This document shows, piece after piece, positions 7,514-26,641 of a DNA stretch of 64,000 nucleotides. The notes beneath the pieces are model-generated. The model did not search any database and was not told where the DNA came from. It worked only from the letters and a program-made list of their open reading frames with translations. Each line of letters starts with the position of its first letter. Position 1 is the first letter of the stretch. The position numbers were made by a program, and so were the translations under genes. This DNA comes from Acidimicrobiales bacterium (GTDB lineage: Bacteria; Actinomycetota; Acidimicrobiia; Acidimicrobiales; Salinilacustritrichaceae), in assembly GCA_041618235.1 (NCBI GenBank), contig JBFJNI010000003.1, positions 7,253 to 71,252 of the forward strand, read 5' to 3'.

Positions 7514-7514
7514 G

Positions 7515-7884: not shown

Positions 7885-7900
7885 TGAAGAAACGGTCAAG
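7885..7900 (-). promoter_or_regulatory. Putative direct-repeat operator CTTGA-N6-CTTCA upstream of the STAS genes
   Basis: + strand TGAAG (7885) and TCAAG (7896), 11-bp spacing. Confidence 0.4.
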
Positions 7901-7906
7901 CCGTCT

Positions 7907-9844: not shown

Positions 9845-9921
9845 GCACCGAAGCTACGAACGGCGTTTCAAGGCCCTCGCGGGGTCAGGTCAGGCTCTGT
9901 CGAGGATCGCGTGAACCCGCG

Positions 9922-9937
9922 ATTGACGTGCGCTTGA
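9922..9937. promoter_or_regulatory. Putative direct-repeat operator ATTGA-N6-CTTGA upstream of the GT2-GT4 gene
   Basis: ATTGA at 9922 and CTTGA at 9933 (11-bp spacing); a further TCAAG at 9868. Confidence 0.4.
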
Positions 9938-9947
9938 GGTTCGCCGG

Positions 9948-10565
9948 TCAGGCGCCGGGCTCGACCGGCCGGCTGGCGACCCGTTGCCACTGGCGGATTC
10001 GCCAGTTGCCGTCCTCGAGGAGGAACACGACCTCGAAGGTGTCGTCGGTGACCCGGGTGACCGGTCCGGCCGGACCGTGGATGACCCGCCCGAGACGGAC
10101 CGGGTCGGCGCGGAGCCCGACGATCGCACCGTCGTCGCTGTAGAAGCCGATCTGGAGCTCGTGGCGCCCGAGCACCAGTTCCACCGGCTCGCTTCCCGCA
10201 GATGCGAATGCCTCCGCCTGTTCGAGGGCCGGGCCGGCGAACCACGTGGACAGCAACGACGGGTCGCCGGTGGCCGACCGCTGGAGCGCCTGCCACGAGC
10301 GGGTCCACGCCGCCTCGAGTGCGCGGCGGGTGGCGGGCTCGACCTCTCGCTCCTGCAGCGGAGCATCGGGCTGCCAGACGACCACGTCCCGCAGCGCGGG
10401 TACCCCGTCGGGGACCTCGGTGAGGGCGTCGGCCGGGTCGGCGCCCTCGGTGGTGCGCTCCTGGATCCGAGCCAGGGAAGCGATGACGACCAGCGCCACC
10501 AGCGCCACGAGCGCAAGCGCCATCGGGCCGATGATGCGCTTCAGTCGGTTGCGGTCGACGTTCAT
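9948..10565 (-). CDS. Membrane-anchored extracellular hypothetical protein (NTF2-like fold suspected)
   Basis: Manual start at ATG 10565 (ATGA overlap), one N-terminal TM helix, ends FLLEDGNWRIRQW. It is the C-terminal part of track ORF 9948..11462. Confidence 0.75.
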   Translation of the reverse strand: MNVDRNRLKRIIGPMALALVALVALVVIASLARIQERTTEGADPADALTEVPDGVPALRDVVVWQPDAPLQEREVEPATRRALEAAWTRSWQALQRSATGDPSLLSTWFAGPALEQAEAFASAGSEPVELVLGRHELQIGFYSDDGAIVGLRADPVRLGRVIHGPAGPVTRVTDDTFEVVFLLEDGNWRIRQWQRVASRPVEPGA

Positions 10566-11779
10566 CGGATCGACCGCTCGACGCCGAGCACGACGACCCT
10601 CGCACGCGGGCTCGGGGCGCTGGTCGACTCGAGTCGGGCGCGCCCGTCCACGGCGAGGGCCCGCAGCGGGGGAAGACCTGGTCGGACCACGACGATCTCC
10701 GTGCCGTCGGGGATCCAGCCCCCGTCGACCATCCGGACCGGCCCGACGTCGACGGCCCAGCGGTCTCCCTGTTCGGAGACCGCCGTCGGGATGCCGTCGA
10801 CCGCCGCGCCGTAGTCGAGCGTGAGCGGCGGGGAGTCGACGCCCGAGCTCGAGGCGACCACACGGAGCGTGCCGGGCACATCCGGTGCCTCGATCCGGGC
10901 CTCGGCACGGCCGTCGATCGTGGGCGCGGTCAGCAGCCGGCGCCCGGTCGGCTCGTCGACCCGGAACATCACGACGGTCCCGTCGGTGACGATGTTGTCG
11001 TGGCGGTCCCTGATCTGCCCGGTCGAGACGCGATGCAGGCGGCGCCCGTCGGCTCGGAACGGCGCCCCGTCCGAGAGGTCGACCTCCACGTCGATCGCGG
11101 TGGGACGACCAGCGACCTCGTCGAGATCGGCGACCGGCCCACCGATCGTTCCGAGCGACACCGTGATCGTGGCTCGCCCGGCGACGGTCCCCGAGAACAC
11201 GCGGCGCCACACCACGAGACCGGTGGTCTCGACGATGCCCCCGGCCTCCCGGTTCCCCGGCTGGCGCGCGGCGAGCACGGCGTCGCTGCGAGTGGGGACC
11301 GGGTTCCCGTAGCGATCGGAGATCACCGCGACCACCATGGCGTGGTCCTCGCCGTCGGCCACGATCGACTTCGGCCCCACGAGCGGGACGATCGGCTCCA
11401 CCGGGGCGCCCGCGTCGATCCGGACATCGACGAACGCTTGGTCGCGCCCGGCGATCACCCACACCTCCACCACGCCGGCCGATCGCGTGATCGACGCGTC
11501 GACTTGGAGGGAGCCTTCGCCGTCGCGGAGGTCGACGTGCCTCGAGACGCTCCCTGCGCTGGCGGTGAAGACCAGCTGGGCCGAGTCGACCGACGGGTTC
11601 GCTCCGGACACGGAGACCGGCATCGGTGCGCCGGCGTCGAGGCGTCGGGGTGCCTCGATCTCGAGTCGCCCCGTCGCCGCCGGGATCTCGGACGGATCAT
11701 CGTGCCTGAGGATCACCACGGCGGCGACGATCAGTGCGATGGCGGTCCACGCAGCGGCGATGCGCATCCTCGTGCTCAC
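10562..11779 (-). CDS. Membrane-anchored Ig-like (Big_1/invasin-like) domain protein
   Basis: N-terminal TM helix, beta-rich sequence, SIVADG...ISDRYGNPV and IRDRHDNIVTDGTVV patterns. Confidence 0.7.
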   Translation of the reverse strand: MSTRMRIAAAWTAIALIVAAVVILRHDDPSEIPAATGRLEIEAPRRLDAGAPMPVSVSGANPSVDSAQLVFTASAGSVSRHVDLRDGEGSLQVDASITRSAGVVEVWVIAGRDQAFVDVRIDAGAPVEPIVPLVGPKSIVADGEDHAMVVAVISDRYGNPVPTRSDAVLAARQPGNREAGGIVETTGLVVWRRVFSGTVAGRATITVSLGTIGGPVADLDEVAGRPTAIDVEVDLSDGAPFRADGRRLHRVSTGQIRDRHDNIVTDGTVVMFRVDEPTGRRLLTAPTIDGRAEARIEAPDVPGTLRVVASSSGVDSPPLTLDYGAAVDGIPTAVSEQGDRWAVDVGPVRMVDGGWIPDGTEIVVVRPGLPPLRALAVDGRARLESTSAPSPRARVVVLGVERSIR

Positions 11780-13035
11780 GACGCCGCCCTCGAGAAGCCG
11801 GTGACCATCACGTCGACTCCCATGATCTCGGGGTCGGTGACGGTGAGGAACACCGAGGGGGTCGGGAGCGCGTCAGCGAGATCGGTGAGGCCGTTGTCGT
11901 AGACCACGCCCGGCAGGTCCACGGGTTCGATGCCCGCCATCGTCGCCAGCGGCACCCGGATCTCGATGCTGCGCTGCGGGCGCACGGCGTCCGGAAGGTA
12001 GGCGTGGTCGACCCAGAGGAGCCGCCCGTCCTCGTCGCGGTAGGTCAGCAGCACGTGCGGCACGGTCACCTCCGAGGTGCCGTCGTTGCGCAGCGTGCCG
12101 ACCAGGAACGATCCCTCGGGGTCGTCGACGATCCGAGCGTCCTGCACCTCGAACGGACGATTCAGCTCGCGGGCCGTGACGACCGCCTTCGTGTACACCG
12201 CGAACCCTGCGACCCGTTCGTCGTCGATCACCAGGGCCGTGGTGGCTTCTGGTGCGAACTCGCCCGCGGTCGGGTCACGGACGTCGAGGGCGCCGGCGAT
12301 GCCCTCGAACTCGATGCGGAACGGTGCGCGCTCCTTCGGCAGCAGCTTGTGCACGGTGATCTGGGCGGCGTCGTACTGGGCGAGCACCTCGCCGTCGCGG
12401 TCGAGGATCTGCCCCGTCACCGTGACATCCGCGGGATCGACGTCGGTGTTGATCACCTCGCCCACGAGCACCCAGCGACCATCCACACGCAGGAGTCTGG
12501 CGTCGACGGTCGTGGTCTCCGGACGGTCGAGGATGTCCGCGTAGGCGGTGGTCCCCACGGTGACGCGCCGGCGGCCCTGGGAGAGGAAGTCGATGGTCGT
12601 GCGGCGCACGAACTGGTCGGGCGGCACCGTGACGTCGGTGGGTGTCGCAACGAGGTGCCAGCGGCCGTCCCGACGGACCAGATCGTGATCCGTCGTCGCC
12701 TCGTAGCGCTGGAGCGAGGTCACGTAGCTCACCTCTGCCCGGACCGTGGCCCTGTCGGCGACCTGGGTGAGCAGCGTCGTGTCGATGCGTTCGAGCTTGC
12801 CGTACGACGCCACGAGTCCGTCGGCCACCGAACGTTCGAGCAGGAACTGGTCGAGATCGGGGCGATGCTGGGGATCGAGGCGGCCGTGCGCGGCGGCGAG
12901 TCGGGAGAAGTCGATGTCGTCGTAGTACGACTCGACGACCGCTTCCGGCGACGACGCCCGGCGGCCCGACGACAGGGCGACGACGGCGAGGCCGGCGACG
13001 AGCACCGTCGTCACGATCGCCGTGGCACGGCGCAC
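11776..13035 (-). CDS. Extracellular module (TM + NTF2-like + two FxLYD-like Ig domains); probably the C-terminal part of the upstream gene
   Basis: LVGEVINT...VTVTGQILDRDG and LVGTLRNDG...LLTYRDEDG. Same frame as 13096..15033, separated only by one TAG. Confidence 0.65.
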   Translation of the reverse strand: MRRATAIVTTVLVAGLAVVALSSGRRASSPEAVVESYYDDIDFSRLAAAHGRLDPQHRPDLDQFLLERSVADGLVASYGKLERIDTTLLTQVADRATVRAEVSYVTSLQRYEATTDHDLVRRDGRWHLVATPTDVTVPPDQFVRRTTIDFLSQGRRRVTVGTTAYADILDRPETTTVDARLLRVDGRWVLVGEVINTDVDPADVTVTGQILDRDGEVLAQYDAAQITVHKLLPKERAPFRIEFEGIAGALDVRDPTAGEFAPEATTALVIDDERVAGFAVYTKAVVTARELNRPFEVQDARIVDDPEGSFLVGTLRNDGTSEVTVPHVLLTYRDEDGRLLWVDHAYLPDAVRPQRSIEIRVPLATMAGIEPVDLPGVVYDNGLTDLADALPTPSVFLTVTDPEIMGVDVMVTGFSRAAS

Positions 13036-13095
13036 CCGGCGGTGTGGCGTCCGCTCGAGGCGTTCGAGCAGTGCATCGCCACGGAGCTGCCACCG

Positions 13096-15033
13096 CTACC
13101 ATCGAGGGGCGATGCGGTCGCCGTCGACCGTGGACGCGATGGCTGCGAGCCGGCCGTCGACGTCGGCCCACCGACGAGCCGGCCAGCTCTGCCCGATCGT
13201 CGAACGCAGGCCCGCTGCCGCGGCCCGGAGGCGTCGGGGCGGCCGGAGCCGGTTCGTGATGCTCGCGAGGAGCGCCAGCAGGGCCGAGACCACGGCCGTC
13301 ATCGGCACCGTGCCCCAGAGGGCGCGCTGCCATGTGGGGATCTCCCGCGAGGGCAGCTCGGCCGGCAGCGGCGCGATGTCTTCGCGTTCCCACACCTGGA
13401 TCCCGTTGGCGAGCACCTCGAGTCGGTGCCAGCCCGAGAAGGCGAGCAACGGGTCGTAGAACTGGTCGTTCGAGAAGACGAACTTGAGGTGGTACTTGCC
13501 GGGGACGGCGAGGAACTGCTGCAGCGAACCGATGCCGGGGACACCACGGAACTTGGCGCCCTCGAGTCGTTCCACGGGCGTCGAGGTCAGCTCGGGAAGT
13601 CGTCGAGCCGAGTGGTAGTTGCCGTCGACCGTCGTGGCGTCGGTGTTGGCCGACAGCCACGCCATCTGGTCGCCGAAGCCGAGTGCCAGGTACCGCCAGC
13701 GGTCGTGCTGGTCCTTCTCCATGAACTGCGCGATGGGCTCGGGATCGATGGGGTCGGGCTGGAAGCGTCGGAGCGCCGGCAGGTCGGCAGCGAAGACGGC
13801 CATGCCGACGAATGCGAGCGCCAACCCGACCTGGATGACGGGGAGGGCCGCGCGACCGAGCTGGGTGCGCACGGCAGTGGCGACCCGTCCCACGTGGAGG
13901 CTGTCGAGGAACCAACCAGCCATGGGCAGGACCGCGATCGTCGCCCAGAAGGTGAAGCGGTCGAGGGTGAGGATGTCGAACGCGCCCCCGAGGAGGAGGC
14001 GGGGGATCGGTGTCGTCCCGCCGGTGCCGAGGAGAGTGAGCAGCAGCACCGATGCCATCAGCGGCCACGCTCGGTTCGTGAGGCCCCGGACCACCGCGAA
14101 CGGGAGCAGGAGCAGGAGTGCGCCCCACGGCACCGCCCAGAACACGAGCCCGGCATTGGTGTCGGAGAGGAAGTCGGCCCGGCTGGCGTGCGGGATGGGG
14201 ATCTGCGTAATCGGGTCGCTGCTGCTCCACAGCCAGTACGGCAACACGACGAACAGGAGCGTGACGACGACCAGGCAGCCGTACACGCCGGCGCGGACCG
14301 TTGCCGGCAGGATCCGACGGACCCGCCGGACGATCAGTGGCTTGGCATTGCGCCGCGTGACACGGGTGGGATGGAGGTCGGTCTCGTCGGGCAGGGGCGT
14401 GCGCAGACGGTCGAGCAGCGCCGTGGCGACGACGGGGCCCAGGAAGAAGACCGATCCGAAGAGGGTCGTGACATGGTGCCCGGCCGTGGTCGCAGCGGTG
14501 CACAGCACCGCCAGGAGGAGGGCCCGGCCGTGTCCCCAACGGACCCACCGGAACGCGAACGGCATGGCGTTGAGCAGGAAGCCGAGCGAGAAGGTGGTGG
14601 GCAGCTGCCCGAACGTGTGGACCGCCTCGGCGATGGACGAGCTCACCGCCGCCAGCAGGGCGGCCCAGGCGGCGGCCTCCGGGCGGACCCAGATCCGTGC
14701 GAAGCGGTACACCCCCACCACCAGCAGGAGGACCGCTGCCAGCTGCACGGTGACGAAGGCCCACTCCAGGCCGACCAACCGGGACGCGAGGGCCATCGCT
14801 TGGTGGGTTCCGGGCGGGTAGCTCGTGGTGGTGAACCCGGTGTACCAGCGGGGTTCCCACGTGTTGAACCAGCCGCGGGCGTAGTGGTCGGCGAAGAAGA
14901 TGTGGACGTAGGCGTCGTAGGTGCGTCGGAAGCTGCCCGAGACCAGGAGTCCGCCGTGGAACAGCGTCGCCACCGCGAGCACGGCGAGGAGGCGCCGGTC
15001 GTGGTGCGCTCGCGGCGTTCGGGTCGACTCCAT
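13096..15033 (-). CDS. GT-C-like polytopic membrane protein (lipid-linked sugar transferase candidate), ending at an in-frame amber codon
   Basis: First loop RRTYDAYVHIFFADHY...WEPRWYTGF...YPP after TM1, more than 10 TM segments, then a soluble loop (RYLALGFGDQMAWLS, DGNYHSARRLPEL). Confidence 0.7.
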   Translation of the reverse strand: MESTRTPRAHHDRRLLAVLAVATLFHGGLLVSGSFRRTYDAYVHIFFADHYARGWFNTWEPRWYTGFTTTSYPPGTHQAMALASRLVGLEWAFVTVQLAAVLLLVVGVYRFARIWVRPEAAAWAALLAAVSSSIAEAVHTFGQLPTTFSLGFLLNAMPFAFRWVRWGHGRALLLAVLCTAATTAGHHVTTLFGSVFFLGPVVATALLDRLRTPLPDETDLHPTRVTRRNAKPLIVRRVRRILPATVRAGVYGCLVVVTLLFVVLPYWLWSSSDPITQIPIPHASRADFLSDTNAGLVFWAVPWGALLLLLPFAVVRGLTNRAWPLMASVLLLTLLGTGGTTPIPRLLLGGAFDILTLDRFTFWATIAVLPMAGWFLDSLHVGRVATAVRTQLGRAALPVIQVGLALAFVGMAVFAADLPALRRFQPDPIDPEPIAQFMEKDQHDRWRYLALGFGDQMAWLSANTDATTVDGNYHSARRLPELTSTPVERLEGAKFRGVPGIGSLQQFLAVPGKYHLKFVFSNDQFYDPLLAFSGWHRLEVLANGIQVWEREDIAPLPAELPSREIPTWQRALWGTVPMTAVVSALLALLASITNRLRPPRRLRAAAAGLRSTIGQSWPARRWADVDGRLAAIASTVDGDRIAPRW

Positions 15034-15079
15034 GGCCCGAACCGTACGAGTTGGCCGTCAACGGCGAGCCCCGCTTCGT

Positions 15080-15163
15080 TCAAGATCCGCTCAAGGCCGC
15101 GGTCGAGGCGGTCCGGCTCCACTCGCTTGACCCGTTCTTGATGTCTGCAACGTCAACGCTTGA
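15080..15163. promoter_or_regulatory. Divergent promoter region with oppositely oriented 11-bp-phased repeats
   Basis: TCAAG at 15080 and 15091; CTTGA at 15126, 15137 and 15159. Confidence 0.55.
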
Positions 15164-17472
15164 CGCGGGCGACGTACCCTCGGCTCGTGCTCTCGCCCGA
15201 CGACCTCGACTTCCGCGCCGTCGCCCTCCAGGCGCCGGTCGCATGGTCGGTGATCGGCCTCGACGGGTCCCAGATCGTGGGCAACGAGGTCTACGCCGCC
15301 CTGTTCGGCTACGACGTAGACGAGATGTCGGCGTTGCGGGTGTTCGACCTCACGCACCCCGACGACATCGACCTGACCGGCGACTACCTCCAGCAGCTGG
15401 TCGCCGGCGAGATCGAGCGGCACGAGGTCGACAAGCGCTACGTCCGCAAGGACGGCTCGGTCTTCACGGGCCACCTCGTCGCATCGCTCATGCGCGACGA
15501 TGCCGGTGAACCGGTCGCGTTGGTGGGTGTCATCACCGACGTCACGGCGGAGCGGGAGCTCGCCACTCAGGTGGCGCAGAGCGAGGAGCGCTTGTCGAAG
15601 ATGTTGACCAACATCTCCGACACCGTCACCCTCCTCGGGCCCGACGGTGCCATCCGCGCCACCACGGGGTTCCACACCGAGATCCTCGGCTATCCCCAGG
15701 AGTTCTGGGCGGGGACATCGATCTTCGAGCTGGTGCACCCCGACGAGACGGACGAGGCCGCACAGCTGGCGGCCGAGGTCCTCGCGCACCCCGGCGCCGA
15801 GTTGATGGGGGAGTTCCGAGTTCGGCATCGACTCGGGCACTACGAGGACATCGAGCTCGCGGCGGTGAACCTGCTCGAGGACGCCTCCGTGGGCGCGATC
15901 ATCCTCACCACCCGGAACGTGTCGGCTCGAAAGGCGCAGGAGCGTGAGCTGGTGCGGGTGCGTGACCGGGCACTGAAGCTCGCCGAGCAGCGAGCGTCCT
16001 TCGTCGCCAACGTGTCGCACGAGCTGCGCACGCCGCTCCACGCGGTCCTGGGTCTGGCCGAACTCTTGGAGCAGAGCGACCTCACACCGGAGCAGCAGTC
16101 ATTCGTCGCCGGCATCACGGGCGAGGCGACGCGGTTGCGGGAGACGGTCGACGATCTGCTCGACCATGCCCGGGTCGAAGCCGACGGTCTCACTCTCGAG
16201 CCGCAGGATGTCGACGTCCGAAAGCTCATCGAGGTCGTGGTCCGACGCAACGCCGCCGCCGAGCACGCCGCGGGCCTCGCGGTCGAGGCCGTCGTCGATG
16301 CCGGGGTCCCGGAGCGGGCACGACTCGATCCGCATCGCTTCGACCAGGTGCTGACGAACGTCGTGGGGAACGCCGTCAAGTTCACCGCGGAGGGCTCGGT
16401 CGTCGTGCGCGTCGCCGAGGAGGCCGGCGCCCTCGTGGTCCACGTCGAGGACACTGGTCCCGGCATCCCGGCGGCTCTGCATCACCAGGTGTTCGAACCT
16501 TTCATCCAGGTGCCGGGGCAGGCAACGTCGGTGAGCGGCAGTGGACTCGGCCTTGCGCTCGTGCGTGGGCTCGTCGCACTGATGGGTGGCGAGGTCGACT
16601 TCGACGCACGTTCGGGTGGCGGCACCGTGTTCCGCCTCCGCATCCCGTTCGAGGCGGCGGGCGACGACGTCGTCGCCGATCGCCCGACCGGGCCCGAGGC
16701 ACCGGCGAGCACCGGGATCTCGGTGCTCGTCGTCGAGGACAACGAGACCAACCAGATGCTGGTGCGCCAGCAGCTCGCCCGCCTCGGTCATCACTGCGAC
16801 GTCTCGTCCGACGCATCCGATGCGCTCGCCCGCCTCGCGCCCCCCGATCACGGGTATGACCTGGTTCTCATGGACTGGCAGCTGCCCGACATCGACGGCC
16901 TCGAGGCCACACGCCGGCTCCGCGTACTCGAGGGCGCGCGACCGCGAGTACCGGTCATCGCCGTCACGGCCAGTGCCATGCCCGAGGACCGTGTCGCCTC
17001 ACGAGAAGCGGGCATGGACGACTTCCTGCCCAAGCCAGTGGCACTGGCCGACCTCTCGGCGATGATCGACCGTTGGGCGCCGGCGAGGAAGCCGACGGCC
17101 GCTGACACCGGCGCCGTGCCTCACGTCGACCTGTCGAAGCTCGAAGGCCTGGTCGACGATCTCGGCGACCGGGACATCGTCGTCTCGCTCGTGACCAGCT
17201 ACCTCTCCGAGCTCGACGCCCGGGAACGGCTGCTCGAGGACGCAGAGCGCGACGCCGACCTCGAGGTGATGCACCGCGTCGGGCACACGTTGCGTTCCAC
17301 GAGCCAGATGCTCGGAGCCGACGCGCTGGTCGGCGTCTGCCGGGAGATGGAGGCGGCGACGGACGACACCGACCTGACAGCGCTCATGGCGAAGTTCGAG
17401 GGCGCGGCAGCCGAGTCCCGATCGGGGCTCGCCGCCTGGCTCACCGATCACGAACAGGGAGATGTGGCGTGA
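15160..17472 (+). CDS. Cytoplasmic hybrid histidine kinase PAS-PAS-HisKA-HATPase-REC-Hpt
   Basis: THPDD/VHPDE PAS motifs, VSHELRTPL, NAVKFT, DTGPGI, GSGLGL, VEDN...LMD...KP and HTLRSTS. Start uncertain (TTG 15160 or GTG 15187). Confidence 0.92.
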   Translation: MTRATYPRLVLSPDDLDFRAVALQAPVAWSVIGLDGSQIVGNEVYAALFGYDVDEMSALRVFDLTHPDDIDLTGDYLQQLVAGEIERHEVDKRYVRKDGSVFTGHLVASLMRDDAGEPVALVGVITDVTAERELATQVAQSEERLSKMLTNISDTVTLLGPDGAIRATTGFHTEILGYPQEFWAGTSIFELVHPDETDEAAQLAAEVLAHPGAELMGEFRVRHRLGHYEDIELAAVNLLEDASVGAIILTTRNVSARKAQERELVRVRDRALKLAEQRASFVANVSHELRTPLHAVLGLAELLEQSDLTPEQQSFVAGITGEATRLRETVDDLLDHARVEADGLTLEPQDVDVRKLIEVVVRRNAAAEHAAGLAVEAVVDAGVPERARLDPHRFDQVLTNVVGNAVKFTAEGSVVVRVAEEAGALVVHVEDTGPGIPAALHHQVFEPFIQVPGQATSVSGSGLGLALVRGLVALMGGEVDFDARSGGGTVFRLRIPFEAAGDDVVADRPTGPEAPASTGISVLVVEDNETNQMLVRQQLARLGHHCDVSSDASDALARLAPPDHGYDLVLMDWQLPDIDGLEATRRLRVLEGARPRVPVIAVTASAMPEDRVASREAGMDDFLPKPVALADLSAMIDRWAPARKPTAADTGAVPHVDLSKLEGLVDDLGDRDIVVSLVTSYLSELDARERLLEDAERDADLEVMHRVGHTLRSTSQMLGADALVGVCREMEAATDDTDLTALMAKFEGAAAESRSGLAAWLTDHEQGDVA

Positions 17473-18011
17473 AGGGAGTGATCTTCAACGTGGTCGAGGA
17501 GGTGGTGACCGAGCAGTACGGCGCCGACACCTGGGATGCCCTGCTCGACGCTGCCGGCGTCGAGGGGGCGTACACCTCGCTCGGGAACTACGACGACGCC
17601 CAGCTCGTGGCGCTCGTCGAGGCGGCCGCGTCTGCCCTGTCGACTTCGGCGGCGGATGTGCTCCGCATCGTGGGGCGCGCCGGTTTCGCCAAGCTCTCCG
17701 GCAGGTACCCGCACTTCGTGGCGGCGCACACGACCAGCCGCACCGTCTTCCACGAGCTCAATTCGGTGATCCACCCACAGGTGCTGTCCTTGTACCCGGG
17801 GGCGTCGGTGCCGCACTTCGCGGTCGAGGGCGACGGCGCCCAGCTCGTCCTGCACTACACGTCGGACCGCGGGCTGTGCCACCTGGCCGAGGGGCTCGCC
17901 GAAGGACTGGCGGCCTCGTTCGACGAGAACATCGCCATCCATCAATCCAGCTGCCGCCACCGAGGCGACGAGACCTGTCAGATCGTCGTGGACTACCTCG
18001 ACCGTGGCTGA
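17469..18011 (+). CDS. hnoX: Heme nitric oxide/oxygen-binding (H-NOX) protein
   Basis: MKGVIF start, YTSLGNYDD, proximal His in IHPQV, conserved Pro in VPHF, and YxSxR motif (YTSDR). Confidence 0.93.
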   Translation: MKGVIFNVVEEVVTEQYGADTWDALLDAAGVEGAYTSLGNYDDAQLVALVEAAASALSTSAADVLRIVGRAGFAKLSGRYPHFVAAHTTSRTVFHELNSVIHPQVLSLYPGASVPHFAVEGDGAQLVLHYTSDRGLCHLAEGLAEGLAASFDENIAIHQSSCRHRGDETCQIVVDYLDRG

Positions 18012-18855
18012 CGCCGACGGCTACCGGCGGCGCTACGAGCGGGAGCGCAACGCCCGGAGGCAAGCCGAGCAGATCGCCGAGTCGGCCATCGCCGACCTCG
18101 TGGCCGCCAACGCGGCGCTCGATGAGCGCGTCTCCCAGCGCACCGCCGAGCTGCAGGCGGCCCTCGGCCGGCTCGAAGCCGCCGACGTCCTCAAGTCGAC
18201 CTTCGTGCGCGGTCTCGCGCACGAGATGTCCACGCCCCTGCACGCCATCCAGGGGTTGGTCGAACTCATCGACGAACGCAGTACCAACGCCGAGGTCCGC
18301 TCGTCTGCCAAGCACGCTGCTCAGGCTGCGACCCGGCTCAACCACGCGCTGCGCACACTCCTCGAGTTCGCCGCGCTCACCTCGGGCGACGTCGACACCA
18401 CCCGCTCGTCGCTCTGTCTGGGCGACTACGTCGACCGGGTGGTCGAGCGGTGGCGGCTTCCGGCCGCGCGCGGAGGCTTGCTGCTGGTGAGCGAGGTCCG
18501 CCCCGACCCCTCGGTACTCGTCGACGTCGACGCCGCGCGCCTCGACCAGATCGTCGACGCCCTGGTCGACAACGCGATCCGGTTCGGGCGCACGCCGATC
18601 GGGCTCCGCTTCGAGCGGATCGACGGCCATCGGCCGCGCCTGCAGATCGAGGTGAGCGACGCCGGCCCAGGCATCCCCGATGCGATGCGTGACCGGATCT
18701 TCGGGGCCTTCGAGCGCGGCGAGGACTCGACCGAGGGATTCGGCGTCGGTCTGACCTTGGCCAGGGCGATCGCCGAGCTGCTCGGCGGCGGGATCGAACT
18801 CCGCTCGGGCGACAGTCAGGGTGCCACCTTCGCCGTCGACATCCCGCTCAGCTGA
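18004..18855 (+). CDS. H-NOX-associated soluble histidine kinase (HnoK-like)
   Basis: N-terminal coiled coil YERERNARRQAEQ, AHEMSTPL, DNAIRF, DAGPGI and GFGVGL. 8-nt overlap with H-NOX. Confidence 0.9.
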   Translation: MADADGYRRRYERERNARRQAEQIAESAIADLVAANAALDERVSQRTAELQAALGRLEAADVLKSTFVRGLAHEMSTPLHAIQGLVELIDERSTNAEVRSSAKHAAQAATRLNHALRTLLEFAALTSGDVDTTRSSLCLGDYVDRVVERWRLPAARGGLLLVSEVRPDPSVLVDVDAARLDQIVDALVDNAIRFGRTPIGLRFERIDGHRPRLQIEVSDAGPGIPDAMRDRIFGAFERGEDSTEGFGVGLTLARAIAELLGGGIELRSGDSQGATFAVDIPLS

Positions 18856-18891
18856 GGCCCGCTCACCCGGTCTTCGCGCGTGATCCCGGGT

Positions 18892-18907
18892 CTTGACGAA
18901 GGCTTGA
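18892..18907 (+). promoter_or_regulatory. Putative direct-repeat operator CTTGA-N6-CTTGA upstream of REC-EAL
   Basis: CTTGA at 18892 and 18903. Confidence 0.5.
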
Positions 18908-18988
18908 TGTGGAATCGGTTGGTCCCTGATCCGGTGGGCAGAAGATGCATGCATGGCCGCACACCCCACCCCCGAACGATCCTCGAGC

Positions 18989-20101
18989 ATGAAGGTGCTG
19001 GTCGTCGACGACGACCCCATCATCCGAGCCCTGCACATCGCGATCCTCGAACGAGCGGAGTTCGAGGTCGTGGCCGTCGCCGACGGCCCATCGGCACTCG
19101 CGACGGTCGAAGCCGGTGGGGTCGAGCTCGTGCTGCTCGACTCGCGCATGCCGGGGATGTCGGGCATCGAGGTCCTCGGCGAGCTGCGCGCCTCCGGGTT
19201 CTCGCTTCCGGTGATCCTGGTGACAGGAGCCGCCGAGACCCACGATCGGGTCGAGGGCCTCGAGAGCGGTGCCGACGACTACATCACCAAGCCGGTCGAC
19301 TCGCGCGAGCTGCTCGCCCGGGTGCGAGCACTCGTCCGGAGCCGTCAGGCGGCCGTGGACGCGATGTCGGCACCAGGACCGGACGACGTGGCCATCCGCG
19401 CCGTCATCCTCGACGCGATCGAGCGGAAGCAGTACCACCCCGTCTTCCAGCCGATCGTCGACCTGGAGACGCGCTCCGTCGTGGCGTTCGAGGCGCTGAC
19501 CCGCTTCGATGACGGCTGTCGCCCGGACCTCCGGTTCGGAGAGGCCGAGCGCGTCGGGCTCGGAGACGAGCTGGCCCTCGCCACGCTCGCCGCATCGATC
19601 CGCGAGGCGGTCGAGCTGCCACCCGCCGTCGCCCTGCACCTGAACGTGTCGCCGCAGCTCCTGACCAACTCCGATCTGGTGACCCTCCTCGCGTCGGCCG
19701 ATCGCCCGATCGTCGTCGAGCTCACCGAGCACGATCCCATCGATGACTACGACGCGGCGATCTCGCAGCTCGCGGCACTGGGAGACGACATCCGCCTGGC
19801 CATCGACGACGCCGGTGCCGGCTACTCGAGCATGACCCACATCCTCGCCCTGCGGCCCCACGAGGTGAAGCTCGATCGGGAATGGGTGCGAGGCGTCGAC
19901 GTCGACGTCGCCCGCCAGGCGCTCATCGCCGGCCTCGTCACGTTCGCAACGGCCACCGAGACGGTGCTCGTGGCCGAGGGGGTCGAGACCGAGTCCGAGG
20001 CGGCGATGCTCACCGGTCTCGGTGTCGGCCACGCGCAGGGGTACCACCTCGGCCGCCCCAGCCCGACCGAGGCGTGGCGGCCGGGAGTCGCCGCCGCCTG
20101 A
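18989..20101 (+). CDS. REC-EAL response regulator / c-di-GMP phosphodiesterase
   Basis: VLVVDD...LLD...TG...KP; FQPIV, EALTR, LNVS, ELTE, IDDAGAGYSS, VKLDR, AEGVE and QGY. Confidence 0.92.
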   Translation: MKVLVVDDDPIIRALHIAILERAEFEVVAVADGPSALATVEAGGVELVLLDSRMPGMSGIEVLGELRASGFSLPVILVTGAAETHDRVEGLESGADDYITKPVDSRELLARVRALVRSRQAAVDAMSAPGPDDVAIRAVILDAIERKQYHPVFQPIVDLETRSVVAFEALTRFDDGCRPDLRFGEAERVGLGDELALATLAASIREAVELPPAVALHLNVSPQLLTNSDLVTLLASADRPIVVELTEHDPIDDYDAAISQLAALGDDIRLAIDDAGAGYSSMTHILALRPHEVKLDREWVRGVDVDVARQALIAGLVTFATATETVLVAEGVETESEAAMLTGLGVGHAQGYHLGRPSPTEAWRPGVAAA

Positions 20102-20124
20102 AGGGTCCGGCATAGGGTCGGCAG

Positions 20125-20985
20125 ATGACCGACGTCGAGGACACACCCCCCACGGTCGAGCGGATGCTCGCACTCCTCGACGTCGAGCGGCTCGACCGCG
20201 ATCTCTATCGATCGCCCGAGGTCTCCTCGCATCATCCGAAGGGCATGCGTCTCTTCGGTGGGCAGGTCGCCGCCCAGGCGCTGCGGGCGGCCACGCTGTC
20301 GGTCGACGCCGACCACCACCCGCACTCGCTCCACGGCTACTTCCTGCGGCCGGGCTCGCCCGACGGTCCGCTGATCCTCCACGTCGACCGCATCCGCGAG
20401 GGCTCGTCGTTCACGACCCGCCGCGTCGTCGCTCGCCAGGAGGGCGAGGCGATCTTCAACCTGTCGTGCTCGTTCCACAAGGACGAGGACGGCCCCGACT
20501 ACGTCCCCTCCATGCCCGAGGGCATCCCCGACCCCGACGACGACCGCGCCGACTGGGACGAGACGATGTTCGCCGAGTTCAACAAGCGTTCGCCGTTCGA
20601 GATGCGCGAGCTCAAGATGGAGCCGCGTGACGAGCGCGGCCACCTCACCTCGACGCGCCGCATCTGGATCCGCACCCGTGGTCCGCTCCCGGCCGACCGC
20701 TCGCTGCAGGCGTGCGTGGCGACCTTCGTGTCGGATATGGGTGCGGTCTTCGCCGCAGCGCGCGCGGTGGGTGCGGCACCTGGGACGATGATGGCGGCGA
20801 GCTTGGACCATGCGATGTGGTTCCACCGCCCGTTGGCGCTCGACGAATGGGTGCTCTACGACCTGGCCCCCGTGTCGAACGGTGGCGCGCGAGGTCTCGT
20901 GCGCGGGGCGATGTACGGACGTGACGGATCGATCGGGGTGTCCGTCAGTCAGGAGGCGCTCGTCCGCCCGCTGCGGACCTCGTGA
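20125..20985 (+). CDS. tesB: Acyl-CoA thioesterase II
   Basis: LFGGQVAAQ, HSLHGYFLRPG, SFTTRRV and SLDHAMWFH. Confidence 0.92.
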   Translation: MTDVEDTPPTVERMLALLDVERLDRDLYRSPEVSSHHPKGMRLFGGQVAAQALRAATLSVDADHHPHSLHGYFLRPGSPDGPLILHVDRIREGSSFTTRRVVARQEGEAIFNLSCSFHKDEDGPDYVPSMPEGIPDPDDDRADWDETMFAEFNKRSPFEMRELKMEPRDERGHLTSTRRIWIRTRGPLPADRSLQACVATFVSDMGAVFAAARAVGAAPGTMMAASLDHAMWFHRPLALDEWVLYDLAPVSNGGARGLVRGAMYGRDGSIGVSVSQEALVRPLRTS

Positions 20986-21022
20986 CTGGCCCCGCGGCCG
21001 AGGTTGTCCGTACCGTCTCGCG

Positions 21023-21412
21023 ATGCGCCGACTTCCGCCCGACTCCGCCCTCGTCCTCGGCGGTGCCCTGCTGCTGGCCCTGGGCGCGTGTGGTGACGAC
21101 GACGCCGCACCGACCGCCGACGCTGGACCGGCCGACAGCAGCGTCACGGTGCTGGCACGGGACATCGACTTCGACGCCGACGCGTACGAGGTGGAAGCGG
21201 GTGCGGTCGAGTTCGTCTACGAGAACGAGGGCGACATCCCGCACACCCTCGTGATCGACGGTGTGCCCATGGAGCTCACCGTTCGCACGCGCGGTGATGT
21301 CGACCGCGGCGTCGTCGACCTCGAGCCCGGCGAGTACACGGTCTACTGCGACGTCCCCGGCCACCGACCGGCCGGCATGGTGGCGACCCTCACCGTGAGC
21401 GACCCGACCTGA
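21023..21412 (+). CDS. Cupredoxin (plastocyanin/azurin-like) lipoprotein
   Basis: Lipobox LGAC; type-1 Cu ligands PHT...YCDVPGHRPAGM. Confidence 0.85.
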   Translation: MRRLPPDSALVLGGALLLALGACGDDDAAPTADAGPADSSVTVLARDIDFDADAYEVEAGAVEFVYENEGDIPHTLVIDGVPMELTVRTRGDVDRGVVDLEPGEYTVYCDVPGHRPAGMVATLTVSDPT

Positions 21413-24611: not shown

Positions 24612-26537
24612 TCAGCGCGTCGCTGGTGAGGCCACGTAGTCATCGAGATCGGCGTGCCGCGTCATCGACCAGTAGTCGACGAGCCGGAACGGCGACACCG
24701 AGACCACCCGACCGTGGCGGTTCCGGTACCAGGTGCTCATGCCGGGATGGGTCCAGATCATGCGCTCGTGTGCCGCGTCGACATCGCGGACCCAACGGTC
24801 GTGCGGCTCGCGCCGACACTCGATCGCATCGATGTCGCGCTCGACCATCTGCACGATGGCATCGGTGATGTAGCGCGCCTGGGACTCGGCCTGGAACATG
24901 ATGCTGCCGCCGTGGCCGAGGTTGGTGTTGGGGCCGTACATGCAGAACAGGTTGGGGAACCCGGGGACCGTGATGCCGAGATACGCCGTCGGGTTGTCGT
25001 CGGCCCACGCCTCGTCGAGCCGCTGCCCGCCGCGCCCGAGGACACCGAGCCGGGCGGTGAGGTCGGTGACGTGGAAGCCGGTCGCATAGACGATCACGTC
25101 GGCCGGGTGATGGAGGCCGTCCTCGGTGACGATGCCGTCGGGAGTGATGCGTTCGATCGGTGACGTCACGAGATCGACGTCGGGGCGGGCGATGGTCTCG
25201 TACCAGCCGTTGTCGATGAGCATCCGCTTCCCGTAGGGCGGGTAGGTCGGCAGGCAGGCGTCGACCAGCTGGGGATGGTCGGCGAGCGAGGAGACGATGT
25301 GATCGGTGAGCTCCTGGCGGTGGCGATCGTTTCCCCGATTGAGCGAGCGCTCCGGATGGGGCCAGTCCGGGTCCTTGACCAGGAACGGCAGGAGGCCGTC
25401 GCCGTAGCGCCAGAGGAGCGTGAACCGGAACCACGCAGCGTAGAAGGGGACATGGTCGAGGAGCCACTGGGTGCCGGTGCTCACCTCGCGGTGGTACTCG
25501 GCGATGGGACGCACCCACTGCGCAGACCGCTGGAACACGTCGAGGTGCCCGGCTCGGTCGGCGATGGACGGGACGAGCTGCATCGACGTGGCGCCGGTGC
25601 CGATGACCGCGACGCGCCGACCGTCGAGGTCGAGATCGTCGGGCCAACGCGCCGAGTGGAACGCCGGTCCGACGAACGTCGACGCCCCCTCGAGATCGGG
25701 GATCGAGGGCAGGTTCATCTGCCCGATGGCACTGATCATGATGGCGGCGTCGAGTCGGTCGAGCTCGTCTCCGTCGCCGGAGCGAAGGTCCAGGTGCCAG
25801 GTGCACGACGCTTCGTCCCACCGGGCCCCGATGACCTCGGTGCCGAAGCGGATGTGGGGCGCGACCTCGTGTTCCACGGCGATGCGTTCGAGGTACCCGT
25901 GGATCTCGGATCGGGGTGAGAAGTACCGGCTCCACGGCTCCGGGGTGCCGAAGGAGAACGAGTAGGCGTGGTTCGGCGTGTCGACGCCGCATCCGGGGTA
26001 GCGGTTCTCGAACCACACCCCGCCGGCTCGCTCGTTCTTCTCGATGATGGTGAACGGGATGCCGAGTCGGGCGAGTTGGACCCCGATGGCGATGCCGGAG
26101 ACGCCGGCGCCGACGACGGCCACGTGGGGCAGCCCGCGGTCTCGCTTCGGGCCCTCGGCGCTCGACCAATCGACGAGGGCAGGCGCGAACCCGAGCTGAT
26201 CGCGCATCATCGGGACGTACGCCTCCTCGACCTGCTCGTCGAGGCAGACCCGCATCATCCGGAGCAGCGTGGTGTCGTCGGGCACAGCGATCGCGGGTTG
26301 CGGAATCCCCGAGCGGAGCAGGTCGACCGCGGCCGCTCGGACGTCGGCTTGTATCTCCGGCGGGAGGCCGGCGTGCTCGTCGGCCACGAGGCGCACGTCG
26401 CGGACCGGACGATGGGGCGGCTCGAGCCAGCACTCGTCGCCGGTGATCTGGAAGAGGCACAGGAGCAGCACGCGGAGATCGGCATCGGCGACGGCCGCCC
26501 GGATCGACGGCTCGTCCGGGTCGGCATGCGGATCCAT
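24612..26537 (-). CDS. Flavin-containing / Baeyer-Villiger monooxygenase (4-hydroxyacetophenone monooxygenase-like, with N-terminal extension)
   Basis: GAGVSG, WFENRYPG, FVGPAFHSARW, GTGATS and ATGF. Start chosen at ATG 26537. Confidence 0.9.
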   Translation of the reverse strand: MDPHADPDEPSIRAAVADADLRVLLLCLFQITGDECWLEPPHRPVRDVRLVADEHAGLPPEIQADVRAAAVDLLRSGIPQPAIAVPDDTTLLRMMRVCLDEQVEEAYVPMMRDQLGFAPALVDWSSAEGPKRDRGLPHVAVVGAGVSGIAIGVQLARLGIPFTIIEKNERAGGVWFENRYPGCGVDTPNHAYSFSFGTPEPWSRYFSPRSEIHGYLERIAVEHEVAPHIRFGTEVIGARWDEASCTWHLDLRSGDGDELDRLDAAIMISAIGQMNLPSIPDLEGASTFVGPAFHSARWPDDLDLDGRRVAVIGTGATSMQLVPSIADRAGHLDVFQRSAQWVRPIAEYHREVSTGTQWLLDHVPFYAAWFRFTLLWRYGDGLLPFLVKDPDWPHPERSLNRGNDRHRQELTDHIVSSLADHPQLVDACLPTYPPYGKRMLIDNGWYETIARPDVDLVTSPIERITPDGIVTEDGLHHPADVIVYATGFHVTDLTARLGVLGRGGQRLDEAWADDNPTAYLGITVPGFPNLFCMYGPNTNLGHGGSIMFQAESQARYITDAIVQMVERDIDAIECRREPHDRWVRDVDAAHERMIWTHPGMSTWYRNRHGRVVSVSPFRLVDYWSMTRHADLDDYVASPATR

Positions 26538-26641
26538 GGCCGGACGGTAGTTGGGCATCGCCCCGGCGGATCGGTTCCGGGATTCGAGGGCGGCGCCGAG
26601 CGGGGAGGAATCGGTGCCCGAATCCGACATATGCTCTCGGG

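Follow-up and report, generated by a model that had tools for sequence, protein, structure and literature searches.

How is an H-NOX gene embedded among kinase and response regulator genes wired in an actinobacterial genome, and what does it control? The genome in question is an Acidimicrobiales (Actinomycetota) MAG obtained from marine metagenomes, and the DNA analyzed (hereafter, the window) is a stretch of 64,000 nucleotides. An earlier note, made from the sequence alone, had described positions 15160-20101 as a complete H-NOX phosphorelay in an actinobacterial-type genome. The genome type is borne out by a housekeeping protein encoded in the window, 86-87% identical to proteins of Acidimicrobiales MAGs and Salinilacustrithrix flava. 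As to function, we lean towards the view that the locus encodes a multi-step phosphorelay, cytoplasmic and gated by H-NOX, which is part of the neighboring surface-glycan cluster and most likely controls it.

The features discussed below are listed in the table. Pfam analysis of the four forward-strand products of 15160-20101 (hybrid kinase, H-NOX, small kinase and REC-EAL) agreed with the domain content first read, and motif inspection found every catalytic and phospho-acceptor residue, in keeping with the claim of intact phospho-sites. The proteins had also been said to lack transmembrane segments; indeed, no TM-like segment was detected in the four proteins over 19 residues, the highest Kyte-Doolittle mean being 1.77. 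Their reading frames are backed by high third-position GC, and no Pfam domains were found in the long opposite-strand ORFs across them. A GTGA is common to the stop of the hybrid kinase gene and the start of the H-NOX gene, the latter overlaps the small kinase gene by 8 nt, and a 97-nt gap precedes the REC-EAL gene. This arrangement couples the translation of the first three genes. No RNA runs were found to contain this DNA. The OmpR regulator attributed to the relay does exist; however, it lies outside the region originally described, on the other side of a minus-strand glycan gene cluster.

Features of the locus, with coordinates in the window
Feature	Position	Strand	Evidence or context
Orphan OmpR/PhoB-family response regulator, REC + Trans_reg_C	5241-5957	+	Pfam
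Flippase-like multi-TM membrane protein	5808-7205	-	Third-position GC 0.88; hydrophobic translation
STAS-domain protein, anti-sigma-antagonist-like	7515-7895	-	Pfam STAS
Two overlapping one-mismatch boxes	7885-7911	-	Between STAS and GT2-GT4 genes
GT2-GT4 fused glycosyltransferase	7907-9844	-	Pfam
One-mismatch box	9922-9937	+	Between GT2-GT4 gene and orf9948
orf9948, Big_1/invasin-like (10562-11779) and FxLYD/Rv0361-like (11776-13035)	9948-13035	-	Pfam, NCBIfam
Polytopic protein, 645 aa, weak PMT_2 (GT-C-like) match	13096-15033	-	Pfam E 0.007
Two exact CTTGA-N6-CTTGA boxes, opposite orientation	15080-15095; 15126-15141	-; +	Divergent intergenic region
Soluble hybrid (unorthodox-type) kinase, PAS-PAS-HisKA-HATPase_c-REC-Hpt, 770 aa	15160-17472	+	Pfam
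H-NOX, stand-alone haem sensor, 180 aa	17469-18011	+	HNOB 127 bits; predicted Cys3/Gln zinc site
Small kinase, soluble HisKA-HATPase_c, 283 aa	18004-18855	+	Pfam, motifs, N-terminal helix HMM
Exact CTTGA-N6-CTTGA box	18892-18907	+	46 nt upstream of REC-EAL start
REC-EAL response regulator (HnoB/RocR-like), 382 aa	18953-20101	+	Pfam; full-length match to RocR 3sy8

The H-NOX sensor and its predicted kinase partner

The H-NOX is well above the Pfam cut-off for HNOB (25.5 bits), and no second HNOB was found in the host genome. Its best solved relative is the H-NOX of Shewanella oneidensis (E 1e-24), with which the proximal His, YxSxR and Cys residues align. Key residues are H102, P115, Y130-x-S132-x-R134 and C137/C162/C170. 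As the proximal His, the YxSxR motif and the conserved Pro are intact, haem binding is expected. The distal-Tyr position holds L139, and residue inspection revealed neither a distal Tyr nor a distal Trp for O2 binding; hence, lacking the distal Tyr, the protein is expected to be NO-selective.

An alternative that seems quite doubtful to us would leave the rest of the relay as it is but have the H-NOX sense mainly redox state or oxidants, by way of its zinc site, or else O2. The ligand could be an oxidant at the zinc site and not NO: in the alignment, the zinc ligands of the Shewanella protein are matched by C137, C162, C170 and Q159, the site is conserved in 'group 3' H-NOX proteins (PMC7108781; PMC8738867), and the haem-free H-NOX of Vibrio cholerae inhibits its kinase upon Cys oxidation (PMC7108781). 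The intact haem-binding residues and the distal pocket speak, however, against this possibility. Furthermore, the Cys residues are gone from half of the H-NOX clade associated with the cassette (L116, L124-L126, L130), yet the cassette is kept, so the zinc site is inessential to the module.

The small kinase carries H73 along with the N, G1 and G2 boxes, and its residues 5-50 form an N-terminal helix of 45 residues. Among 123 loci, 110 have a match to an HMM of this helix at the start of the gene that directly follows H-NOX, irrespective of effector class; across the 123 loci, no match was found beyond the first residues of that gene. Possession of the helix points to the small kinase as the direct partner of H-NOX, and we predict it to be the HnoK equivalent.

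A sensor cassette inherited with glycan genes

H-NOX genes of Acidimicrobiaceae and Mycobacteriaceae are already on record (PMC8738867). In our sample, H-NOX was present in 21 of 301 Acidimicrobiales genomes (host included) and in 22 of 401 Actinomycetota genomes. The hybrid kinase/H-NOX/small kinase cassette was found at L116, L123-L126, L128, L129, L132, L133 and L153; since other Acidimicrobiales also have the unit, and Mycobacteriaceae a form of it whose small kinase is degenerate, the system of the window is not unique. Orthologues of the hybrid kinase, whose phospho-sites are H287, D572 and H709, occur at L132 and L153 (37% identity each), at L133 and in G063 (72%), a genome of the same genus.

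A taxonomic survey and an H-NOX phylogeny, both proposed with the original reading, placed the window in a clade of Actinomycetota that extends beyond this genome. The only named members of the clade are Actinomycetota; it contains every locus with an upstream HK-REC-Hpt, and L153 is the sister of the window. In a kinase-core tree, the cassette hybrids, including that of the window, form one clade (support 93), and the cassette small kinases form a separate, divergent clade (support 96) with the same pairings. The three trees agree, and the three genes are, by this phylogenetic reading, co-inherited across Actinomycetota.

The two kinases had been viewed as independent parallel inputs. This part of the claim does not fit the small kinases of relatives. 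In L126, L128 and L129, the phospho-His is replaced by Arg; in G086 and in Mycobacteriaceae only the DHp is left, without an ATPase domain; and in L153, the closest relative, the Hpt is carried on the small kinase and the hybrid is a PAS-HK-REC protein with a C-terminus only weakly Hpt-like. Even where it has no phospho-His or no ATPase domain, or carries the Hpt, the small kinase is retained in every case alongside H-NOX and the hybrid. In addition, the hybrids of most relatives lack any sensor domain, which leaves H-NOX as the only possible sensor there. Altogether, these observations argue that the hybrid mediates the action of the small kinase.

Against this background we consider it unlikely that the locus holds two uncoupled pathways, one from H-NOX and HnoK to REC-EAL and the other from the PAS hybrid through Hpt to OmpR. 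Such an arrangement would be compatible with the intact H-box and ATP-binding motifs of the small kinase in the window; this kinase might be an ordinary HnoK that targets the product of the next gene, REC-EAL, directly. The route from HnoK to HnoB is the one characterized in Shewanella (PMC8846402). Moreover, G063 keeps the OmpR regulator and the hybrid kinase without H-NOX, so the hybrid can work as an independent system. Co-inheritance of the three genes and the degenerate or Hpt-bearing small kinases and the mostly sensor-less hybrids of relatives are, however, difficult to reconcile with separate pathways, and most cassette loci lack REC-EAL.

A surface-glycan gene set, the conserved partner of the cassette, was absent from the first reading. 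Glycan genes like those at 5808-15033 flank the cassette in 10 of the 10 relatives with enough flank, and none were found beside the other H-NOX loci (>100). Relevant details are as follows:

(i). The 645-aa PMT_2-like protein shows the highest conservation in the glycan cluster. Homologues with 61-66% identity adjoin the cassette in L116, L123-L125, L133, L153/L238 and L237; the protein is absent from the five genomes of the same genus.

(ii). The three proteins of 9948-13035 are membrane-anchored or extracellular. Wherever a cassette locus has enough flank, homologues of them lie there in collinear order.

(iii). The GT2-GT4 protein, whose NCBIfam matches to polyprenyl-phosphate hexose transferases are below cut-off, has homologues of 50-56% identity next to the cassette in relatives. 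Flippase-like homologues (31-46%) adjoin it in L116, L123-L126, L128, L129, L156 and L238.

(iv). STAS homologues (31-41%) were detected in seven cassette loci, including that of M. xanthum. The syp locus of Vibrio fischeri contains a STAS protein, SypA.

Because relatives keep the sensor module beside the same glycan genes, the module is most likely an NO switch of the surface coat.

Two candidate outputs

Convergence of the relay on the OmpR regulator, as the earlier note had it, finds strong comparative support. No kinase gene adjoins the regulator in the window; however, among the proteins of its own genome it best matches the cassette-adjacent OmpR proteins of L126, L128, L131, L156 and L220 (51-59% identity, 243-261 bits, the next paralogue reaching at most 174 bits), and its orthologue in G063 (82% identity) is encoded 47 bp upstream of the hybrid kinase gene. 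Hence, OmpR is probably the terminal transcription-factor output. A clear orthologue was not found in five cassette genomes (G155, G057, G146, G023 and G085), and the regulator is therefore not universal.

CTTGA-N6-CTTGA, a rare direct repeat with 11-bp spacing, is found at promoters of the cluster, that of REC-EAL included. The window has six boxes where 0.77 would be expected; all six are inside the cluster, and half of the six exact copies of the 3.92-Mb genome are in the window. Where a cassette locus has an OmpR orthologue, the boxes number 10 per 127 kb; cassette loci without one have 0 per 78 kb, and the remaining H-NOX loci 8 per 1.30 Mb. In G063, the identical 16-mer occurs between the OmpR and hybrid kinase genes (L239:10156), two one-mismatch boxes are found directly upstream of the REC-EAL orthologue of G086, and box positions are the same in G086 and M. 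xanthum. We propose that the boxes are operators of the OmpR regulator, an assignment made by co-occurrence only.

REC-EAL retains D63 and the EAL residues E180, N231, E256, D285, D286, K306, E342 and Q362, and is predicted to be an active c-di-GMP phosphodiesterase. It does not look like the core output: of about 11 cassette loci, just 2, those of the window and of G086, have the gene next to the cassette, and in G507 its orthologues are on a contig other than that of the cassette. REC-EAL is thus a lineage-specific branch, whose place in the relay rests on adjacency and the common box.

Might REC-EAL be no phospho-target of the relay, and instead a mere transcriptional target of OmpR or an unrelated neighbor under another kinase? 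The rare adjacency and a promoter region of its own with a box would fit this possibility, as would the many other kinases and c-di-GMP enzymes of the genome; still, we deem it rather improbable. The orthologue of the distant relative G086 (38% identity) is again cassette-adjacent and again has boxes, the genome has no other REC-EAL, and the Shewanella REC-EAL is a proven target of an H-NOX kinase (PMC8846402).

A tentative circuit and its known counterparts

In the phosphorelay that we favor, ferrous H-NOX would bind NO, dock on the N-terminal helix of the small kinase and alter its activity, presumably by inhibition if HnoK and SiliHK are valid analogies. The small kinase would then act on or with the hybrid, either by phosphorylating D572 of its REC or by modulating the DHp through kinase-kinase contact, and the PAS domains of the hybrid would provide a second input. 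Phosphate might travel from H287 to D572 to H709 (Hpt), and from there to both OmpR and D63 of REC-EAL. Phospho-OmpR would bind the box in front of REC-EAL, those within the glycan cluster and those at the divergent promoter of the glycan and kinase operons. Phospho-REC-EAL would lower c-di-GMP, in a background of about 34 GGDEF proteins encoded by the genome. NO and the PAS signal would thus reset surface glycan production and c-di-GMP.

Our verdict is that the locus may be read, from its sequence, as an actinobacterial variant of NO-to-biofilm circuits of the Shewanella Hno or V. fischeri HnoX-Syp type; if so, it would be the actinobacterial counterpart of these proteobacterial switches. The convergence of two kinases first suggested has the topology of Shewanella, where HnoK, with its NO input, and a second kinase, HnoS, signal to HnoB and HnoC (PMC6335343). 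In the Hno system of S. oneidensis and V. cholerae (HnoX, HnoK, HnoS, HnoB, HnoC, HnoD), which controls c-di-GMP and biofilm (PMC6335343, PMC8846402), a stand-alone H-NOX likewise adjoins a soluble, sensor-less HisKA kinase, the second kinase has another input, and the outputs are a REC-EAL protein and a transcription-factor response regulator. The system of the window differs in that it belongs to Actinomycetota, its second kinase is a REC-Hpt hybrid whose gene precedes that of H-NOX in one operon, its regulator is OmpR-type, and the module lies within a glycan gene cluster; besides, no HD-GYP partner was seen in the cluster, and the HnoK-like protein of relatives may be a pseudo-kinase.

In V. 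fischeri, HahK, controlled by NO and HnoX, is reported to signal through the Hpt of SypF to regulators of the syp polysaccharide locus (PMC12369376), a similar case of kinase-to-kinase wiring with a polysaccharide target. However, the glycan genes are non-homologous, and in the window a single conserved cluster contains the sensor gene, those of the two kinases and the target genes. The regulator is OmpR-type while SypG is sigma-54-dependent, and there is an extra REC-EAL branch.

The Silicibacter sp. TrichCH4B relay SiliHK/SiliHpt/SiliDGC, a His-Asp-His-Asp pathway gated by NO-bound H-NOX (PMC4436077), also has four steps and a REC-fused c-di-GMP enzyme as the last one. There, a single hybrid kinase is the direct partner of H-NOX, the Hpt is separate and the output is a cyclase; in the window, the hybrid includes the Hpt, the docking helix belongs to a second, small kinase, and the outputs are a phosphodiesterase and a transcription factor. 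A path from H-NOX through a hybrid kinase and an Hpt to a transcription regulator is likewise found in the H-NOX-HqsK-LuxU-LuxO circuit of V. harveyi and V. parahaemolyticus (PMC8738867; PMC6759604). That circuit serves quorum sensing, its Hpt (LuxU) is common to several kinases, and it has neither a c-di-GMP enzyme nor a glycan cluster, both of which are found in the window.

The operon and its H-NOX sensor

The four genes that the earlier note had placed at 15160-20101 are real, as judged from their Pfam domains and from third-position GC, which supports the frames. As it had described, they form one overlapping run followed by REC-EAL: the sequence GTGA is common to the hybrid kinase stop and the H-NOX start, the H-NOX and small-kinase genes overlap by 8 nt, and 97 nt separate the small kinase from REC-EAL. 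The next gene encodes an acyl-CoA thioesterase, and the genes upstream of the operon lie on the opposite strand. Domains were searched in long overlapping ORFs in other frames, and none was found. A plus-strand ORF upstream of the operon (11734-15141) was rejected as a gene because it had no domains and the wrong third-position GC. Scanning of 14900-21300 for sigma-70 promoters and intrinsic terminators detected none, a result that is uninformative for an actinobacterium with 70% GC.

Features of the window discussed in the text
Feature	Position	Strand	Domains and remarks
OmpR regulator	5241-5957	+	Pfam REC, winged-helix Trans_reg_C
Cluster STAS gene	7515-7895	-	
Hybrid kinase	15160-17472	+	Pfam PAS x2, HisKA, HATPase_c, REC, Hpt
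H-NOX	17469-18011	+	Pfam HNOB, 127.4 bits (cut-off 25.5)
Small kinase	18004-18855	+	Pfam HisKA, HATPase_c; 283 aa
REC-EAL	18953-20101	+	Pfam REC, EAL
Acyl-CoA thioesterase	20125-20985		next gene after REC-EAL
PAS-PP2C (SpoIIE) phosphatase	26447-28681	+	long N-terminal region beyond the assigned domains
SulP-STAS transporter	28700-30265	-	
Surface protein	46749-51395	-	1548 aa; DUF11, DUF7507, CARDB, SpaA-like repeats
GGDEF-EAL protein	59638-62463	+	941 aa

All four proteins retain every phospho-acceptor and catalytic residue, and a TM-like stretch was found in none of them (0/4), so the intact phospho-sites and the solubility noted earlier both stand. The hybrid kinase carries the residues of a phosphorelay in one chain: H287, D572 (with D527, T603 and K625) and H709, the latter in HTLRS. 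In the small kinase, H73 and the N, G1 and G2 boxes are present. The DHp helices of the hybrid and small kinases are alike (HELRTPLHAVLGLAELL vs HEMSTPLHAIQGLVELI), a likeness that was not used as evidence.

The H-NOX protein covers positions 1-162 of the 163 of the HNOB profile (PF07700) and matches the solved Shewanella H-NOX (So) with an E value of 1e-24. The proximal haem-ligating histidine is H102, aligned to So H103, and both P115 and the propionate-binding Y130-x-S132-x-R134 are present; the proximal His, the Pro and Y-x-S-x-R are all invariant in an alignment of 18 sequences. We take Leu139 to occupy the distal-Tyr position (Tyr140 of the Tt protein), with Val, not Trp, at position 9, and this pair of residues predicts NO selectivity without O2 binding. 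In addition, C137, C162, C170 and Q159 align with the zinc site of So (C139, C164, C172 and H161). Zinc-site ('group 2/3') H-NOX proteins have three conserved Cys plus His or Gln as fourth ligand (PMC7108781), and the window protein has the three Cys and the Gln.

The assembly (3.9 Mb, 207 contigs) was rightly described as of actinobacterial type, since a carboxyltransferase encoded in the window has 86-87% identity to its counterparts in Acidimicrobiales MAGs and Salinilacustrithrix flava. Four marine metagenome runs, all DNA, contain the window stretch. HNOB occurs once in the genome, in 21 of the 301 sampled Acidimicrobiales genomes (own genome included; 14/185 genera) and in 22/401 sampled Actinomycetota genomes; none of five same-genus genomes has it. 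Homologues are on record from Acidimicrobiaceae, Nocardioidaceae, Micrococcaceae and Mycobacteriaceae, as "group 3" with a conserved zinc site (PMC8738867; PMC7108781). Recent transfer from Proteobacteria was considered and rejected: GC is uniform (0.69-0.70), and the clades in which the H-NOX and the two kinases are placed contain Actinomycetota only.

Two H-NOX occurrences deserve separate mention. A contig labelled as a Thermoplasmatota archaeon (locus L003, JBHEMF010000075.1) encodes an H-NOX 49% identical to that of the window beside bacterial-type kinase and REC neighbours, and is probably a mis-binned bacterial contig. Actinobacterial 806-aa ORFs at loci L120 and L197 carry H-NOX at the C-terminus, after an N-terminal region of 620 residues.

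A three-gene cassette and the relation between its kinases

Neighbourhoods of 40 actinobacterial H-NOX genes (~8 kb per side) and of the 80 closest H-NOX genes of all phyla (~7 kb per side) were compared, the domains of the window itself serving to score neighbour genes. A hybrid kinase (HisKA-HATPase-REC-Hpt), H-NOX and a small kinase follow one another in this order again at loci L116, L123, L124, L125, L126, L128, L129, L132, L133 and L153. Most hybrid kinases of this cassette have no sensor domain at all, their HisKA beginning around residue 7-26. In Mycobacteriaceae (L156, L159, L175, L220), one of them the cultured Mycolicibacterium xanthum Y57 (L156), a 950-aa PAS-containing hybrid kinase lies 5' of H-NOX.

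Loci in which a hybrid kinase precedes H-NOX together form a single clade of the H-NOX tree. Every named member of this clade belongs to Actinomycetota, and the sister of the window is L153 (56% identity). In relatives from Proteobacteria, Verrucomicrobiota, Nitrospirota and other phyla, the partner genes of H-NOX lie solely downstream. A tree of kinase cores groups the cassette hybrids together (support 93) and sets the cassette small kinases apart in a very divergent clade (support 96). Both clades repeat the internal pairings of the H-NOX tree, so the three genes have been inherited together as a unit.

Members of the small-kinase clade have in common an N-terminal helix of 45 residues, RLERRLERERxARxxAExIAE...RTAEL, found at residues 5-50 of the window small kinase (18016-18153) and absent from the hybrid kinase. 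Pfam has no family matching residues 1-60 of the small kinase. An HMM of the helix matches the first residues of the gene directly 3' of H-NOX in 110 of 123 loci (L002-L234) from many phyla, starting 8-100 nt past the H-NOX stop, and has no significant match elsewhere in ~1.9 Mb of locus DNA. The genes that bear it encode a plain kinase (37 loci), GGDEF-EAL (37), HK-REC-REC (12), HK-REC (6) or, in the rest, other types. We read the helix as a mark of the direct H-NOX effector, a neighbour that its signature would predict across phyla, and it is likely to be a general H-NOX docking element.

How the two kinases relate can be approached through small kinases that have degenerated. At L126, L128 and L129 an Arg replaces the phospho-His. 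In G086 (locus L132) and in the Mycobacteriaceae, the small-kinase gene is short, encoding the N-terminal helix and DHp with no ATPase domain detected. In an uncultured Mycobacterium MAG (L220:6995-8224), H-NOX is fused in frame to a small-kinase-like DHp protein in a 409-aa ORF. At L153 a clear Hpt is found on the small kinase (E 5e-14, cassette Hpt model), and the hybrid kinase has just a weak Hpt-like tail. Judging from their sequences, these forms could not work as an ordinary kinase. Such small kinases, together with the many sensor-less hybrid kinases of relatives, argue that H-NOX and the small kinase would make up an input module for the hybrid kinase, on which or with which it acts, rather than a separate parallel pathway. 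The module might transfer phosphate to the REC domain of the hybrid or act through kinase-kinase contact. Possibly the window small kinase, which has the full set of catalytic motifs, passes phosphate straight to REC-EAL by analogy with Shewanella.

The OmpR regulator, its candidate boxes and the two outputs

The OmpR regulator named in the earlier note exists, but at 5241-5957, beyond the coordinates given there. With this amendment the observation made there is confirmed, and its interpretation is partly supported. The regulator has no kinase neighbour and adjoins a flippase-like membrane protein gene on the other strand. At L126, L131 and L156 the convergent REC genes adjoining the cassette are OmpR-type. 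When OmpR regulators of L126, L128, L131, L156 and L220 were compared with the genome under study, the window regulator was the best match in 5/5 cases (51-59% identity, 243-261 bits; next paralogue ≤174 bits). Clear orthologues were found in genomes G277, G201, G027, G282, G086 and G507; a search of G155, G057, G146, G023 and G085 found no clear one.

A same-genus genome without H-NOX (G063, locus L239:10143-13243) is informative. Its regulator, 82% identical to that of the window, lies 47 bp ahead of a hybrid kinase with unchanged architecture and 72% identity. Of the small kinase, just an H-box remnant comes next (58% identity over 36 residues, from residue 48); its first ~47 residues are missing, as is H-NOX. 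Because only this remnant is left, a deletion appears to have removed H-NOX and the docking helix from G063, with the regulator and hybrid kinase persisting as a cognate pair.

Allowing for up to one mismatch, the window contains six copies of a repeated motif, CTTGA-N6-CTTGA, always within 7885-18907; 0.77 were expected, and shuffling never gave as many as six. Of the six exact copies in the entire 3.92-Mb genome, three are in the window. Two (15080 and 15126) stand in opposite orientations in the divergent intergenic region, and the third (18892) lies 46 nt 5' of REC-EAL. The same 16-mer is found in G063 between regulator and hybrid kinase. Boxes in G086 precede the regulator, the GT-C-like gene, the hybrid kinase and REC-EAL, and those in M. 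xanthum the regulator and the STAS gene, with an opposed pair between GT2-GT4 and flippase genes. Cassette loci with a regulator orthologue have 10 exact sites in 127 kb searched, and those without it have 0 in 78 kb. Other H-NOX loci have 8 in 1.30 Mb, 4 of them in L194, a member of the same H-NOX clade. OmpR/PhoB-family regulators bind direct repeats about one helical turn apart, and these 11-bp-spaced repeats would fit as a candidate operator of that type.

Two of the three remaining exact boxes of the genome lie ~50 bp 5' of genes, C11:38415-40082(-) and C10:15779-16471(+), which are possible further regulon members. One of the two codes for a membrane sensor kinase with an H-box similar to that of the hybrid kinase; the other encodes a secreted protein that by eye we take to be TasA/camelysin-like.

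Between regulator and operon, the minus strand encodes a flippase-like protein, a STAS protein, a GT2-GT4 fusion, a 205-aa protein, a Big_1 protein, an FxLYD/Rv0361-like membrane protein and a 645-aa GT-C-like protein. Homologues of these glycan genes adjoin every cassette locus with enough flank (L116, L123-L126, L128, L129, L132/L237, L133, L153/L238) and are partly present in M. xanthum (L156); at all other H-NOX loci compared there are none. Their fixed position beside the cassette points to surface-glycan machinery as its conserved functional partner. In G507 the hybrid kinase, H-NOX, small kinase, glycan genes, OmpR regulator, and flippase with GT2-GT4 are collinear on one strand. In G086 the regulator comes first, and after it the glycan genes, hybrid kinase, H-NOX, degenerate small kinase and REC-EAL. 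The glycan gene at 13096-15033 has a homologue in 0/5 same-genus genomes, which shows just that the cluster is accessory. Around the thioesterase orthologue of G263, a same-genus genome, comparison with the window showed no synteny and no gene in common but that one, so the limits of the island cannot be set in that way.

The GT-C-like gene and the gene next downstream of it (11776-13035) had been read earlier as one frame split by an in-frame TAG (13035-13098); in relatives, their counterparts match separately, ~300 nt apart. The PAS-PP2C phosphatase, the SulP-STAS transporter and the cluster STAS protein could form a partner-switching layer. The window also encodes a large repeat-containing surface protein.

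REC-EAL matches RocR along its full length and is the sole protein of this architecture among the ~20 EAL and ~34 GGDEF proteins or ORFs of the genome. Its EAL profile score is 147.8 bits. The phospho-acceptor is D63, and the EAL residues are E180, N231, E256, D285/D286 (DDAGAGYSS), K306, E342 and Q362. They provide all of what we take to be the catalytic set (EAL Glu, Asn, ELTE Glu, the loop 6 DD pair, KLD Lys, EGVE Glu and QGY Gln), and an active phosphodiesterase is predicted. Full-length orthologues were found only in G086, adjoining the cassette, and in G507, on another contig. We rate REC-EAL as a putative lineage-specific c-di-GMP branch of the circuit, given its adjacency, the box shared in two distant genomes and the Shewanella precedent (PMC8846402). 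Elsewhere in the window there is a GGDEF-EAL protein.

Relation to known H-NOX circuits

As in Hno systems, H-NOX adjoins a soluble kinase without sensor domain or TM segment. In Shewanella, HnoB, HnoC and HnoD are fed by the NO-controlled HnoK and by HnoS, which brings in a second input (PMC6335343), and the circuit proposed for the window has the same topology. There, the kinase phosphorylates the REC-EAL protein and stimulates hydrolysis; the window counterpart, REC-EAL 97 nt downstream, would be a putative recipient. An HnoD-like REC-HD-GYP modulator is not encoded within 1-30000 of the window. A four-step relay to a c-di-GMP enzyme, like that of the window, is known from Silicibacter (PMC4436077). 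Vibrio fischeri HnoX-HahK-SypF resembles the window in that an H-NOX-controlled kinase acts via the Hpt of another kinase on a polysaccharide locus (PMC12369376).

Unlike these systems, the window circuit (i) belongs to Actinomycetota; (ii) has a kinase on either side of H-NOX, the three genes being translationally coupled as one unit; (iii) is of a type whose auxiliary kinase is often degenerate; (iv) has an OmpR-type regulator with a definable box; and (v) is in fixed linkage with one particular glycan gene set. On these comparisons, the system would represent a new, actinobacterial form of the known NO/H-NOX-to-biofilm circuits.

A broader proposal, advanced tentatively and with the balance leaning somewhat against it, is that Actinomycetota carry an ancient, self-contained NO-to-surface module, made of a helix-docked auxiliary kinase, a hybrid kinase, an OmpR regulator with its boxes and a glycosylation machine, the helix being of general use in docking. 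H-NOX would gate the signalling kinase indirectly, through a partner (an auxiliary kinase or pseudo-kinase) on whose conserved N-terminal helix it docks; this partner would in turn control the sensor-less hybrid kinase by kinase-kinase contact or trans-phosphorylation. The OmpR-type regulator would then read (T)CTTGA-N6-CTTGA boxes and drive a dedicated surface-glycosylation machine (GT-C-like enzyme, Ig-like anchored proteins, GT2-GT4, flippase and STAS switch). The same 45-residue helix would serve H-NOX docking on kinases and GGDEF-EAL enzymes across phyla.

NO is common in marine and sediment nitrogen cycling, and the circuit would link actinobacterial cell-surface remodelling to it. The locus and its relatives offer a complete putative circuit (sensor, two kinases, Hpt, two outputs, candidate operators and candidate targets), comparative evidence for kinase-to-kinase signalling downstream of H-NOX, and a cultured carrier, M. 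xanthum Y57, where it could be tested. According to a 2022 review, which terms the area open, no Gram-positive H-NOX has been studied (PMC8738867; PMC7108781), nor has any from an actinobacterium been characterised (PMC8738867); the locus supplies a testable case.

H-NOX and REC-EAL are also found together elsewhere. In Massilia and Telluria (Oxalobacteraceae; L186, L190, L210), ~400-aa REC-EAL genes are convergent to H-NOX/GGDEF-EAL pairs, and these loci are another recurrent association of the two.
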